This document shows, in pieces, positions 55,801 through 64,000 of a DNA stretch of 64,000 bases. Numbering within the stretch: the first letter of the stretch is position 1; every line of letters begins with the position of its first letter. The notes beneath the pieces are model-generated. The model did not search any database, was not told the DNA's origin, and worked only from the letters and a program-made list of their open reading frames with translations. The translations under genes were made by a program, and so were the position numbers. Source of the stretch: Vairimorpha necatrix (Eukaryota); NCBI GenBank assembly GCA_036630325.1, contig CP142732.1, positions 1,116,001 to 1,180,000 of the forward strand, read 5' to 3'.

Positions 55801-56779
55801 CCAGGGACAGAGTTTATACAGAGTTGGCTCACAAGCTCTATATTACTAATTTTAACAATAAATTTAGTAAAACTTTTTTATCTAGATGCATATTCTCTGG
55901 ATTACGTCAGTTTTCAATTCAAAATTCTTCCTATTAAATCTATCTCCTAAAAAACATAGTCAAGAAAAATACTAAATAAACAAAAAACAAAATTTAGTCA
56001 ACTATTGACTCGATCATAAAACATAAATAATTTTTTTGTCATAATCGTTACCGTATATAAAAAAACCTAATATAGATTTTAGGCCTAGTATTCGTAGTTT
56101 CGTAATTTTCATAGTGATAATTTTATTTTTGTAATGCTAAAATAAACTCATTTAGTAAACGTAATTATGATGGCATGATATACTTTTTTCTTTGTCTCAA
56201 TATCCTATAAAAATATTGCACTATTATTTCTCAAGATTATCCTCCTAGGAAAATGTAGTGTCATTTGACCATATAAATTTTTAAAAAAAAAATTGCTAAA
56301 TATAAACATTAAAATGTTTTAATATCGTCTCGGCTGTCTTGATTCAATTTTACAGTAAATTTTTTACTTTAAAAGCGTGCAAAAATGAATAGAAGCAAAA
56401 TTTATCCTATAGTTATTAACTTCCGGAAATGGAAATATCAAATAAAAATGCAGTAATTTATAATATATACCTTTTACGGAAATTTTGTCGATGTTTTATG
56501 ATATTGTTTTAAAAGGGAAAATTTAATTAATCGGGTACAAATATAGATAATTACAAAAAGTATAATAGAATGAAAATGAAATACGATTGAATTAAAAAGA
56601 TATATCGTATGCTTAAACTTTTATCTATGAATAATAGATAGTGTTTGTTAATATTCAAATGAAAAGTGACTAAAAGATGAGTTTTTTTTAAAATGTGAGC
56701 GTATCATATTGATGTCTAAAACGGGTAAATATCTTAAATCCCCTTTTTTTGAATAAATAAAAATTTATGGCTTTGGGGT

Positions 56780-58744
56780 ATGTTATCAAACAAAAAAATT
56801 TTGAAGTATGAAAATCTTATCTATGAAGTTAAAAATAAAGATAAAAAAATAAACAGCAAGTATGTCACAATAATTAATGGATTATCTGCAACAATAGAAT
56901 CTGGGAAAGTTACTGCTGTTATGGGAGCTAGCGGCTGTGGTAAAACACATTTGTTCGAATTGCTTATCGGTAATTTATCTACTAATTGTAAGACTTCGGG
57001 GAAAATAACTTACAATGGCCAAGAAAGAGATTGGAAAAAATGGACGAAACAGATAGCCTTTCTCCCCCAGGATGATATATATTATCCCGATTTGACTACT
57101 TACGAATCTATTATATACAACCTCTCATTTAATTCGAATAACTATAAGGAAAATATTAAGATAGCGAACGATGCCATTAATTGCGCATGCATTTTTTATA
57201 AAAAGGATGCACCAATAAGAACATTATCTGGTGGAGAAAGGAAAAGAGCTATGATGGCAATCACAATGGCAAATAATCCTGAAATTTTAATATTAGACGA
57301 GCCAACAGCCGGACTTGATTCCTATAGTGCACTAAAAATCGTTGAGAGTCTCAAAAAATATGCTGTTGACACTAATAATATAGTTATAATGACAGTACAT
57401 CAACCAGGAGATGGGATGTTCAATTTATTTGATGATTTAATATTTTTGACTAGAGGTGGTTTGTTTTATGCGGGACCAGTTAATGAAATCAATAGTTTTT
57501 TAGAATCGACCAATATTTGTCCGCCAACGAACATGTCACATTCAGAAGCGCTTTTCATGTTACATTCAGATCCCAAAGAATCGGAATTTGCCCGAAAATA
57601 TGAAAATGCGGTTAAGGACATCGTTTATAGAAATGCAGTAAAAGATCCATTACCAGAGCCCAAAGCATGTAATAACAAAAGTATGGTTTTTTTTGGTATA
57701 AACGTTAGGCATATTTTCATTCTGTTAAAACATAATTTTAGTTTAATGCTGAAAAGTCCTGATAGATTTAAAAGTTATTTGATGTTTATAATATTTAGTC
57801 TTCTCTCTTTTGGACCATCTGTTATAATAAAATTTATCGCTAAACATGAGGATATTTTAGAAGATTACGATAGTTTAAGACAAGCAAACTTAAAATTTTC
57901 AGAAAAACTTGCTTTATCTTACGTTTTGTTTTCAAGCGAATATATGATTTCAGTTGCCTTATGGACTACATTTTTTAGTATAAATATGCAAGACGAAGTT
58001 ATTTTGAAGATGGAATTATTCACTAGAAAATATTCACTAATGACATATTATTTATACAACTTTGTGCAGAAATTTTTGTGCTCTTACATTTTCTTAACTA
58101 TTGGATATTTGATTATGTTTATTATCGATTTCAACTCTGGTTATCCTGCAGAAACTATATACCTATTATATCCCATTATAATAATATCATTATTTTTGAC
58201 TGTTGCAGTTAATTTATTGTTAACATCAATTCCTTTAGGTTTTAAAATGTCATATTTTATTGTCCTGTGCAATACATTTGGGGTTTATTGTGGTCATACA
58301 TTACTAATTAATGCGTACAAAATTTTTTTGGAGCGTTTTTGGGATAAGACGCCTCTAGCATTAAATTTACTATTACTCTTTCCTAATTATTGTTTCGACA
58401 TCTATTCTATGACCAAAATGCGTATTATTCGTAGAAATACTCAACCTCGATTTTTTCACGACATTATAGAGCATTTAAAATTCTATGAAATTGGTGGTTA
58501 TAGTCCTTATGCAGAATCGACGCCAATTATAAGAAGCAGACGTCAATATAGTCTCATTAGATCCCTTGTCCCCAATGAATTTTTTTATGATCCTAAGTTT
58601 GCTCTATCCCTAATTTCTTTTGATATTGAACCCAATACTTTATTATTTATTATTCCAATAAGTTTTTCTATCTGCGTAATGTTGACATTATTGAATATGT
58701 GGTTTAATAAAGTTAGTAACATCAGGACCAAACTTATGAGCTAA
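56780..58744 (+). CDS. ABCG (White-type) half transporter
   Basis: NBD-TMD order; GASGCGKT, LSGGERKR, LDEPTAGLD, TVHQP; C-terminal TM helices. Confidence 0.95.
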   Translation: MLSNKKILKYENLIYEVKNKDKKINSKYVTIINGLSATIESGKVTAVMGASGCGKTHLFELLIGNLSTNCKTSGKITYNGQERDWKKWTKQIAFLPQDDIYYPDLTTYESIIYNLSFNSNNYKENIKIANDAINCACIFYKKDAPIRTLSGGERKRAMMAITMANNPEILILDEPTAGLDSYSALKIVESLKKYAVDTNNIVIMTVHQPGDGMFNLFDDLIFLTRGGLFYAGPVNEINSFLESTNICPPTNMSHSEALFMLHSDPKESEFARKYENAVKDIVYRNAVKDPLPEPKACNNKSMVFFGINVRHIFILLKHNFSLMLKSPDRFKSYLMFIIFSLLSFGPSVIIKFIAKHEDILEDYDSLRQANLKFSEKLALSYVLFSSEYMISVALWTTFFSINMQDEVILKMELFTRKYSLMTYYLYNFVQKFLCSYIFLTIGYLIMFIIDFNSGYPAETIYLLYPIIIISLFLTVAVNLLLTSIPLGFKMSYFIVLCNTFGVYCGHTLLINAYKIFLERFWDKTPLALNLLLLFPNYCFDIYSMTKMRIIRRNTQPRFFHDIIEHLKFYEIGGYSPYAESTPIIRSRRQYSLIRSLVPNEFFYDPKFALSLISFDIEPNTLLFIIPISFSICVMLTLLNMWFNKVSNIRTKLMS

Positions 58745-61700: not shown

Positions 61701-62218
61701 ACTATTTTAAATCAGAAACTTTGCTTTAAATAAAGAGCGTAAAATCCAAATTTTATTATTAATTGAGCAATATATATCTTTTAAAAACAGTTATTTATAA
61801 AACCTAGTTTTTCATTGTTTAATTTTAATATATCTATCTAAATATTTAAACCTGTTAAAAGAGCCGCCAAATCCTTTATATCTCTTATCTAGATCATGTA
61901 ATGTCGTTCTATACGTAACTATGACAATCAAGTTCTAATTGTAAGGATTACAAAACTACGAAGATAGGATATAGATTGAAATATATTTAAATGAAAAGCT
62001 TTAGATATATAAAAAAAACGAACCTAAGGCAAGTTGACATGCCGAAATCGACAATGACTGATATTAACTCAATATTAATATCTTGGATCAGTTATGTAAT
62101 TTTTTGAGAGGACAACAAGAGGGTATTTGGATACTAAAAAGTAGCTTTGCTTGAAAAAATTTAAATCGGAAAGAGCTATATAAGTTTGTTAAAAGATTTG
62201 TAAAACAGAAGTAATTAA

Positions 62219-64000
62219 TGTCACAGTTAGTTGGTGGAACCAGTTAGTAGAGGGAACCCTAAAAAAATTTATAAAAAAAGACCCCCGTGGGAATCGAACT
62301 TGGGACTTCTCGAAAGAATACAATCACAATGAACGACTTTTTTGAGACGGTTCTAAATTTGTCCTAATTGTATTATGGGGTATATTTCGAGTAATTTTAT
62401 ATAAATTTGGAGGGAAAATAAAAAAAAATAAAATAAACAACTTTTTAAAAATTTATTCGTTATCAAGCAATCTCAGATCTCTAGTGTAAATTTCTTCTAT
62501 AATAAGCAATGGATCGGCCTCTTTAGATAATTTTACTTTATTAAATTGAAGTATATCCATTACAATATATACATCGACATCCAAATGTTCGTATAGAGAT
62601 AGCCTTCTAGTACTTTGATTATTGTCTAAATATGGTCTTATAAGAACCCTATCTCCCAATTTATATTCATAGAAGTCATTTCTCCACATACTTCTTTCAA
62701 TCATTCTATTAGCAGCATTTTGAGTATTAAACCGTGCAGATTCGTGGTAAACTTAATTTAAAAAAAGATTTTCATTGTTTAAAGCATATAGTTCTTCGTA
62801 ATTTACGACGTTACTTTCTTCAAAAACAAATTCTTCTCTTCGTTCTTCTTCCTCGTTTTCAACTTCGTTTTTTTTTGCAACCGAATCTATTTTATCAGTG
62901 ATTCTAGATTCTTGCATCATGTCTTTAATGGGTTTACCAAAAATTAAACCGAATGTAGTTTGTTTAGTTGTTTTTGCCTTAAGTTGTTATATGCCCAGTT
63001 AACTTCTTGGCGTACTATGGTCCATTGCCCTAAGATATTCTTCGACCTCAGAGTAGATTCAATCATCCATTTTATTGTTTGATTGCATCGTTCTATCTGT
63101 TCTTGTATCCAAGGACATCTAGCTCTTCCTATTACATGTCTTATTTCATACTTTACACATAAATTCACGATATATTGATTAACAAATTCTCTACCGTTGT
63201 CGGTATGAAGTATAAAACAAGATCCAAACGTATTGAATAGTGTTTCAAAGGCATCACGCACACTAATGCCAGTTTTGTCACACAATGGAATCGTCCAACA
63301 GAACTTGGTAAATGAATCCACTACGTTAAGTAACCATTTATATCCATCATTGAGTTTGTGATACAATCGAAGATCAATCAAATCAGCAATTTACCTTTCT
63401 CTATAATATTTTGAAATGATTGGTCTAATAACTGGTCTAGTTATTAGATTTCTTCTTGCTTGACAAATATCACAACTTTTCAAAACTCCTCAGTACTTCG
63501 TTTTGAGTAACGTCGTATACTTTTGATTGTAACAATGGATACAATCTGTCACGCCCAGGATGTCCATTAGAAACATGAATCAGTTTGATGAAATCCAGTT
63601 TGAAACGCTGCTCATTAGTTGTAAAGAATCTCAATGATCTATATTAATCTACTTTAAACCTCACAGTTAGTTCAAAACTTCCATTGTTGTTTTCTTCAAA
63701 CAACATGAAACGTTCAGCTTTTCTTTAAAAATTTTTACGATCAACTTTGTCCAACAACGTTGGTGGCAGCTGACCATATAATAAAAAATTGTAAACTTCT
63801 TGTCTTTTATCATTGTCCATTTTTATTCTCATAACCCCACAAAAAAAAAAAATTATTTACTATAAATTGAAGGATAATTTTACTGTAATTTCTTATAATA
63901 TTTTTTTTCCTTTCTAAGTAAATTTTGTTTTTCTTCAAAAGGTCCTGGGTTCGATCCCCACAGAGCTCTTTTTTAGGGTTCCCTCTACTAACTGGTTCCC
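62219..64000 (-). mobile_element. Ginger-like integrase-encoding DNA transposon (decayed); right end cut by the window edge
   Basis: TGT left terminus; perfect 31-bp inverted repeat 62236-62266 vs 63969-63999; integrase present without RT or Gag. Confidence 0.85.
62453..63832 (-). pseudogene. Disrupted rve-type integrase/transposase
   Basis: ggggttATG at 63832; HVSNGH..CDIC zinc finger; ADLID, HTDNGREF, IERCNQT (DDE); C-terminal GDRVLI; several stops and at least two frameshifts. Confidence 0.9.

Follow-up and report, generated by a model that had tools for sequence, protein, structure and literature searches.

Near the right-hand edge of a 64,000-nucleotide stretch of the Vairimorpha necatrix genome (GCA_036630325.1, contig CP142732.1, positions 1,116,001 to 1,180,000, in our coordinates G000:C7:1116001-1180000; hereafter the window) lies an element of 1,798 bp that carries one integrase gene and has tRNA-like sequence in its ends. 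The genome comprises 15.0 Mb in 12 contigs. The element begins with TGT at 62219 and, when the contig is extended, ends with ACA 16 bp past the window. From the letters of the window, an earlier note had proposed an integrase-only DNA transposon of Ginger type, bounded by terminal inverted repeats (TIRs) and running from TGT to ACA. This was borne out by the contig extension, Pfam searches and two trees. The element is a microsporidian cut-and-paste transposon of Ginger type, of which the window has a recent but dead copy. Its features are as follows.

62214..62218, plus strand: left copy of the 5-bp target-site duplication, ATTAA, standing after an A; its right counterpart is at L001:3418-3422, before a T
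62219..62266, plus strand: left outer TIR, 48 bp, beginning TGTCAC, at the downstream end of the integrase gene
62224..62257, plus strand: two tandem 17-bp subterminal repeats (62224-40 and 62241-57), located by a repeat finder
62273..62279, minus strand: T7 run closing the left tRNA-like segment at tRNA position 73
62280..62310, minus strand: left, diverged tRNA-like segment, outward-facing, with a B box at 62290-62300 (17.4 bits)
62453..63832, minus strand: integrase-type transposase gene with an H2C2 zinc finger, a D-D35-E core and an SH3-like tail, broken by stops and frameshifts
63835..63838, minus strand: GGGG motif just upstream of the integrase ATG, resembling the microsporidian CCC/GGG transcription signal (PMC5499648)
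63938..63968, plus strand: right tRNA 3'-half segment (tRNA positions 42-72, variable loop and T-arm), antisense to the integrase
63969..63974, plus strand: T6 run from tRNA position 73, with terminator geometry; it is also the inner A-tract of the terminal repeat
63969..64000, plus strand: right outer TIR with two 17-bp repeats, extending 16 bp beyond the window to ...GCGACA (L001:3417)

The transposon and its copies

The integrase is the sole coding content of the element, a single frame filling the 1.8 kb. In the window copy it is reduced to several short frames, with 44 substitutions and 2 gap columns relative to the intact copy L004. The search for intact copies that the earlier note had advised was successful: L004 and L005 each have an uninterrupted integrase frame of 459 amino acids. 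Pfam matches rve (E 3e-12) and Integrase_H2C2 (E 2e-6) in the intact copy and no other domains, and no reverse transcriptase (RT) or RNase H was found in the element by Pfam search. The catalytic residues D150, D211 and E247 are conserved in our integrase alignment (A1). The predicted fold is closest to the foamy-virus and Ty3 integrases, and the model aligns over its full length with foamy-virus integrase; in the Atlas only general integrase clusters came up.

A DNA search of the genome recovered 13 loci at 92-100% identity (family A), two of which are halves of one interrupted copy. The remaining nine complete copies are 94-97% identical to the window copy, family A has therefore been active recently. 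A sister family, B, has 27 loci among the matches listed, at 71-77% identity. Protein searches of the genome revealed the more distant families C, D and E, with integrases of 437, 420 and 581 amino acids, and the decayed distant lineages F, F2, G and H. No RNA run was listed among the sequencing runs that hold the sequence. In run X1 the copies have the same flanks as those of the assembly and so are not independent; the same families are present in run X2, and run X3 gave matches of 38-41 nt only.

The left and right outer TIRs are identical at 44 of 48 positions by hand count. Two pairs of inverted arms were detected by the repeat finder, one of 31 bp at 100% identity (62236-62266/63969-63999) and one of 50 bp at 74% (62274-62323/63925-63974). 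The TGT at 62219 followed by two 17-bp repeats is as the earlier note described it. Its predicted right end was correct in place, at window-equivalent position 64016, and wrong in one letter, GCGACA being found for GTGACA; the predicted 4-bp TTAA duplication proved to be the 5-bp ATTAA, which stands at 62214-62218 and again after the right end. The 17-bp repeats are probably binding sites for the transposase, judging from their arrangement, and the opposite end has one or two of them depending on the copy. The tRNA-like B-box segment was considered as a third copy of this repeat and dropped, matching at only 9 of 17 positions, in family A, by hand count.

Duplications were counted in copies for which both ends and a duplication were found. 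They are 5 bp long in all ten family-A copies with both ends in one locus, and in 31 copies of families A-D and F, 30 of which lie in an A-N5-T context. The same letters can also be read as a duplication of 7 bp with ends GT...AC. We prefer TG...CA with 5 bp because L077 violates the A-N5-T rule yet keeps the 5 bp, and because integrases of this class have ends in CA. A single 4-bp call in the lineage-H copy L233 is probably spurious. Duplications in family E are mostly of a 4-bp TATA type (4 bp in 5 of 6 copies). Family E (L104-L110; e.g. G000:C11:883300-887300) is young, 2.75 kb long and of the animal type of Ginger2, its 581-residue protein ending in a cysteine-rich tail. At the upstream end of family B (L014-L020, L071-L090) a terminal unit of about 55 bp is tandemly doubled in many copies, and the 17-bp repeat of this family is a diverged, partly palindromic homologue of that of family A.

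tRNA-type boxes in the element and its relatives

The earlier note had read the 3' half of a tRNA in both ends. The letters of the right segment were confirmed as AGGTC (63940-44), CTGGG (63945-49), TTCGATC (63950-56), CCCAC (63957-61), AGAGCTC (63962-68) and T6 (63969-74), as was a diverged inverted copy at 62280-62310, which matches at 22 of 31 positions by hand count. Boxes were scored with a matrix for which the B box was built from 44 distinct tRNA sequences of this genome (50 of the 63 listed tRNA genes were fetched); the genome's own tRNAs range from 11.0 to 19.7 bits for the A box and from 13.4 to 20.5 bits for the B box. The right B box (63948-63958) scores 19.5 bits and lies antisense to the integrase, 116 nt upstream of its ATG. 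Among 300,800 background positions there was one B box of at least 16 bits, and this is itself a tRNA gene.

Compared with the genome's own tRNA-Ala(AGC) over tRNA positions 42-66, the right segment agrees at 22 of 25 positions in the window copy and 23 of 25 in L004; outside the B box the figures are 11 and 12 of 14, respectively. For these matches outside the box, simulated probabilities for the best match among all tRNAs are about 4e-4 to 1e-3 for the window copy and 2e-5 to 1e-4 for L004. tRNA-Phe(GAA) matches the window copy at 21 of 25 positions, so tRNA-Ala(AGC) is the best candidate for the donor without being fixed with certainty. A covariance model of 26 own tRNAs ranked 63887-63969 above everything else in the 64-kb window (17.5 bits; on a rough calibration, E 0.004), the match being to a 3' half only, short of a cloverleaf or a full tRNA pseudogene. 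The left segment was not detected by this model and matches any own tRNA at 17 of 25 positions at most; it keeps one of five T-stem pairs, the right segment four. The claim for both ends therefore stands for the right one, on the tRNA-Ala match and the own-tRNA model, and goes no further than a B box and a T-run on the left. Family B has a B box at the place matching the left segment. Neither segment folds better than shuffled sequence, Rfam searched at E up to 10 gave no tRNA hit in the element and six other loci, and ARAGORN found no tRNA in the element. The right segment is a genuine tRNA 3' half, and the inner ends are reduced to a B box and a T-run. The right segment is better read as belonging to the integrase promoter region than as a feature of the TIR.

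In type 2 RNA polymerase III (Pol III) promoters the B box is preceded, 30-60 nt upstream, by an A box. Family A has the B boxes (19.5 and 17.4 bits), and neither of its outward-facing ends has an A box, the scores being below 0. On the strand of the right B box, a T5 and a T8 run come before it. With no A box and with these runs the element is not a working Pol III gene, and transcription by Pol III, which the earlier note had considered, is unsupported. Families C, D, F2 and G do have an A box in this position. Their A and B boxes sum to 32-37 bits, within the range of 25-40 bits of real tRNA genes, and in families C and D both boxes lie antisense to the integrase, immediately before its ATG on the upstream side. 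One family-C integrase also stands beside a hit in a search for a B box followed by a T-run, which gave 26 hits against 9 in a reversed control.

Upstream boxes in these other families were scored in a fixed window relative to the integrase start. All 10 copies of family C have an A box of at least 11 bits, and in 8 of the 10 the B box is intact (19.5 bits); all 3 copies of family D carry both boxes, and family E has neither (0 of 7 copies). Among the 13 family-A loci a B box of at least 16 bits is kept upstream in 10 and downstream in 12, the halves of the interrupted copy counting as two of the 13. Another 20 copies are more decayed. Twelve of them keep, in the same place, an A box of at least 11 bits or a B box of at least 13 bits, three have weaker traces and five have nothing, two of these five appearing to lack the 5' region. 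The A box starts 68-94 nt and the B box 109-137 nt from the ATG, the B box of family A being at 116-118 nt. The spacing from A to B box is tRNA-like at 30-33 nt (41 in family C), and the acceptor stems have been lost. A CCC or GGG motif adjoins the ATG in each lineage with boxes.

The proteins behind these boxes are diverged, the distant box-bearing lineages having about 33% identity to the family-A integrase. Five lineages whose integrases are about 40-57% identical to the C or D protein were compared, and their boxes are 77% identical. The upstream flank, the spacer and the downstream flank are 50, 45 and 46% identical, against 48, 42 and 41% in shuffles; out of 100 shuffles, 28, 8 and 2, respectively, came up to the observed values. 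An 11-mer evolving neutrally should have decayed with the sequence around it.

Some further observations concern single lineages. Family C (L091-L099, L103; e.g. G000:C8:456300-459500) is young, 1.82 kb long and has mostly open 437-residue frames; its ends are GC-rich and partly palindromic, and in addition to the full antisense A and B promoter upstream there is a weaker, inward-facing B-box-like site (13 bits) near its downstream end. In the decayed copies L217, L218, L221, L231 and L234 the B boxes are often broken by C-to-T changes at a CG dinucleotide, possibly a sign that cytosines in old copies are methylated. The lineage-H copies (L229, L230, L233) have nearly the same integrase as lineage G, and their upstream region has a short GC-containing inverted repeat in place of the boxes.

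A possible role for TFIIIC

tRNA-type promoters at the same spot in distant lineages suggest that the elements borrow the host machinery of tRNA transcription. DNA transposons need no RNA intermediate, a fixed tRNA-type promoter in diverged lineages therefore points to a use of Pol III factors in self-regulation or insulation. We propose, with a probability of about 0.5, that the boxes are a retained TFIIIC site that would tune or insulate the transposase promoter, would be dispensable and would not serve targeting. Host TFIIIC would bind the boxes, and for this they would have been kept, a step to which we give about even odds. In lineages with A and B boxes, TFIIIB and Pol III would be placed back-to-back with the very short Pol II promoter of the transposase and would overlap it. 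The geometry of Pol III promoters is established, and an A box 68-94 nt from the ATG would bring TFIIIB onto the AT-rich stretch about 25-65 nt upstream of the start codon, in which the short promoter of the transposase itself must be located. The B boxes of family A would be TFIIIC-only sites at both ends of the gene. Transcription of the transposase might be damped or assisted; alternatively, the boxes might form a nucleosome-free or barrier site, which would hold the end free of silent chromatin and shield the element. The site would be helpful without being indispensable, and would have no part in the choice of insertion site. A gene for the TFIIIC subunit tau95 is present in the genome.

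A broader version is more tentative, and we rate it somewhat short of an even chance: a distinct, mainly microsporidian group of Ginger-like elements, marked by 5-bp A-N5-T targets, a YPYY-like N-terminus and the lack of GPY/F, may have kept, or repeatedly captured, a Pol III promoter back-to-back with the transposase promoter, with TFIIIC and TFIIIB as a built-in regulator or insulator, family A having been cut down to B-box-only sites that bracket the gene.

Several observations weigh against a retained TFIIIC site. The five lineages compared were picked for showing boxes, which inflates the contrast between box and spacer, and their downstream flank is slightly above the shuffles (2 of 100). 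Family B has the upstream B box in 0 of 27 loci and an intact downstream one in only 9 of 27. Four of its copies (L014, L015, L018 and L073) share a B box broken at the invariant A and have clean duplications, they have therefore transposed without an intact box. Lineage H lies inside G by its integrase, yet has lost both boxes and has a different upstream region. The domains of tau138, the TFIIIC subunit that binds the B box, were not matched in two Pfam searches, which are themselves uninformative, and the need of microsporidian Pol III for A and B boxes is left open in PMC5499648. Beyond this genome, a metagenome scan with a single protein found no relative, and alignment-based scans found 80 metagenome loci, mostly distant and many incomplete, and 4 viral loci. 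Among these 84 loci, many of them incomplete, only L115 and L116 have an A and B pair. A complete metagenome element of about 2 kb in the same broad group (L111:96-2081) has no promoter boxes; its ends read TGTCGC, its subterminal repeats are in tandem, and its duplication is of 5 bp in an A-N5-T context.

The family-A segment corresponds to the promoter of families C to G by position only, and the two groups are separate in the tree. Since A and B are separate from C to H, and the family-A segment has more tRNA-specific letters than those of C and D, this segment may have been captured separately and later, at the same place, instead of being left over from a single ancestral promoter. Whichever history holds, some advantage is implied.

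The alternative that survives best, although we think it unlikely, is a neutral relic: the ancestor of family A would have captured a tRNA fragment once and copied it to the other end, and the fragment would now be decaying, its boxes inert in family A. The tRNA-specific letters outside the right B box, in the variable loop among other places (the 12 of 14 in L004), are as expected after a recent capture, family A has no A box, and family B has moved with a broken box or none. Against it, boxes stand at a fixed distance and in a fixed orientation in lineages with diverged integrases, where the spacers are near shuffle level. Within L004 itself the two segments disagree with each other at 8 of 31 places, and yet both keep a high-scoring B box and a T-run at position 73.

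A second alternative is improbable. It treats the boxes as a small-RNA gene, from which a short Pol III transcript would run outward to the T-run, the RNA or its transcription regulating the element. The box scores of C, D, F2 and G in the range of real tRNA genes would suit it, and T-runs begin at tRNA position 73/74 in both family-A segments, in family B and in family C. Against it are the missing A box of the studied element and the T5 and T8 runs that a transcript would meet before the B box; spacer sequence and cloverleaf are not conserved, and in family D the 30 nt that follow the box contain no T4 run.

It is very unlikely that the element and its tRNA piece were acquired recently from an animal host, an origin that the earlier note had raised. 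Transposon transfers between hosts and microsporidia have been reported (PMC4202319), and two relatives are annotated in an Octopus sinensis assembly. L115 and L116, which are one animal-type Ginger2 element seen in two metagenomes, have a similar antisense pair of A and B boxes (L115:180-260 and L116:480-560, minus strand; 30 bits) about 240 nt upstream of the ATG, which may be an intrinsic part of the element or a short interspersed nuclear element (SINE) insertion. A recent animal origin is nevertheless not supported. The nearest named relatives of the integrase are mostly microsporidian and belong to several genera, and the genome's own tRNA-Ala, the best match, accounts for the segment. 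In the trees, both quick IQ-TREE runs with support from the Shimodaira-Hasegawa-like approximate likelihood ratio test (SH-aLRT) only, a Dictyocoela protein joins families A and B (SH-aLRT 98-99), followed by proteins of Nosema granulosis, Pseudoloma and Nematocida. Families C to H form a second group, and family E, not family A, is found with animal-type proteins, including an animal-type metagenome element. Family E is thus a better candidate than family A for transfer from a host.

Slightly less probable still is that TFIIIC or TFIIIB at the ends serves the integrase as in Ty3, by targeting to Pol III genes or in transpososome assembly. The predicted fold resembles the foamy-virus and Ty3 integrases, the Ty3 structure being, from its title, a complex on a TFIIIB-bound tRNA gene, and in family A both ends have boxes. 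Targeting, a suggestion of the earlier note, is however largely refuted, since insertions do not lie near tRNA genes: 52 copies are no closer to them than random positions, the median distance to the nearest one, out of 63, being 98 kb where random positions give 89 kb, with 2 copies within 3 kb where 1.3 are expected. In most lineages the module is at one end only, and lineages without it have transposed.

The least credible origin is insertion or recombination into the ends of the genome's abundant tRNA-headed SINE-like repeat, which keeps both A and B boxes and accounts for most of the matches listed for an A+B pattern found 109 times in the genome and 0 times in the control; we rejected it, as the right segment of L004 matches tRNA-Ala(AGC) at 23 of 25 positions and two SINE head types at 16 of 25, the C and D segments match the heads at 16-17 of 25, no better than tRNA, and no SINE body follows the segments. 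The repeat itself (L195-L214; e.g. G000:C1:174300-177400) has two head types, which keep the acceptor and T stems. Tandem double heads occur in L203 and L204, the latter joining both types.

Relatives and known systems

Bao, Kapitonov and Jurka (2010; PMC2836005) define, within the Ginger superfamily, Ginger1 as well as Ginger2/Tdd. The element has an H2C2 and DDE transposase alone, TGTCA/TGTCG ends, a 48-bp TIR and a target duplication, and belongs in this superfamily. In the first tree three rows with a short core (P0177, L234 and L232) were left out; in the second, 9 of the genome's 27 long terminal repeat (LTR) retrotransposon integrases were kept, near-copies and short or broken rows having been removed. 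The integrase lies outside LTR pol, 16 LTR integrases (9 of them from this genome) falling on one side of a branch with SH-aLRT 98 (98-99 over the two trees). It is not nested among RT-linked integrases, as a member of Ty3/Gypsy pol would be, and the element has no RT or RNase H. With family E as a proxy for Ginger2, this family and the group of the present element are separate sisters on the non-LTR side. KRBA2- and SCAND3-like protein names presumably point to Ginger2.

The closest described elements are Ginger2/Tdd, above all TDD-4 and TDD-5 of Dictyostelium. They have the same single H2C2 and DDE transposase, their ends are of the TGTNR type with TIRs that measure about 50 bp or more, their targets are AT-rich, and they lack both GPY/F and a protease tail; the 5-bp duplication is shared with TDD-4/5, metazoan Ginger2 having 4 bp (PMC2836005). 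The V. necatrix element differs in being only 1.8 kb long, in its strict A-N5-T target (30 of 31) and in its tRNA-type boxes, which are unmentioned in the accessible description of Ginger2/Tdd. It is also separate in the tree from the genome's own animal-type family E with its 4-bp TATA duplications. The N-terminal region of the integrase (F16, P23, F42, F58 and the matching columns of alignment A1), compared by resemblance only, is similar to the YPYY motif, which in Ginger1 stands upstream of the zinc finger and is said to be absent from Ginger2 (PMC2836005). TGT ends and integrase-only coding are likenesses to Ginger1, as this YPYY-like region may be; the 4-bp CCGG/CCGT duplications, the GPY/F and the OTU or Ulp1 domains of that group (PMC2836005) have no counterpart in the element. 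GP(Y/F) is absent from the C-terminal block of alignment A1, in which a G-D-x-V block remains, and OTU and Ulp1 had no Pfam match in the integrase. Ginger in Anncaliia is listed by domain only (PMC5751038).

B boxes outside working Pol III genes have parallels in host genomes. The extra TFIIIC (ETC) loci of budding yeast and the inverted repeats of the fission-yeast mating-type region are B-box-only TFIIIC sites. As in family A, these B boxes are without a working Pol III gene and stand inverted on both sides of a domain, but they are fixed host boundaries with binding shown, whereas those of family A are in a mobile element and known from its sequence. In yeast Ty3, and in the repression of adjacent Pol II promoters by tRNA genes, Pol II and tRNA-type promoters are likewise neighbours. 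Ty3 resembles the present elements in having a transposon promoter back-to-back with a tRNA-type promoter; it gains this arrangement by inserting beside host tRNA genes, while the V. necatrix elements carry the promoter inside and insert randomly relative to tRNA genes. The tRNA-derived SINEs (SINE2) also have A and B boxes of tRNA origin within a mobile element. Their promoter faces inward and is needed for the transposition intermediate, whereas the DNA transposon has no RNA intermediate and its promoter faces outward.

Sequence resembling tRNA-Ala is said to occur in the ends of animal Ginger1 elements, and the earlier note mentions tRNA-derived TIR segments in some families there; no such report was found in the literature searched. 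If one exists, the capture would be less novel, the conserved A and B pattern would not. The main text of the paper that defines Ginger1 (PMC2836005) has no mention of tRNA, and no tRNA-like Ginger ends appear in the accessible text of PMC4202319, PMC6839031, PMC3845634 and PMC5753468. We found no description of a tRNA-type promoter kept in DNA transposons in the literature searched, subscription journals and Repbase Reports being outside its reach.

The interest lies in boxes conserved across lineages, with a function that is predicted. Whether A and B boxes act as promoters in microsporidia, or are kept only through tRNA structure, is an open question (PMC5499648), on which these elements bear, since their boxes persist where the cloverleaf is gone. 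If the broader version above is right, a cut-and-paste transposon would here depend on Pol III factors with no RNA intermediate involved, and there would be evidence of A and B boxes acting as microsporidian promoters outside tRNAs; if the boxes are inert, the element is of the ordinary Ginger type and has captured a tRNA fragment. Lineages with A and B boxes (C, D and G), with the B box only (A) and with neither (B and H) form a natural comparison set, and family C is the best experimental subject.

Elsewhere in the window, 3.5 kb from the element and with no link to it seen, an intronless frame of 663 amino acids on the plus strand (56753-58744) resembles an ABCG-type half transporter in its motifs.

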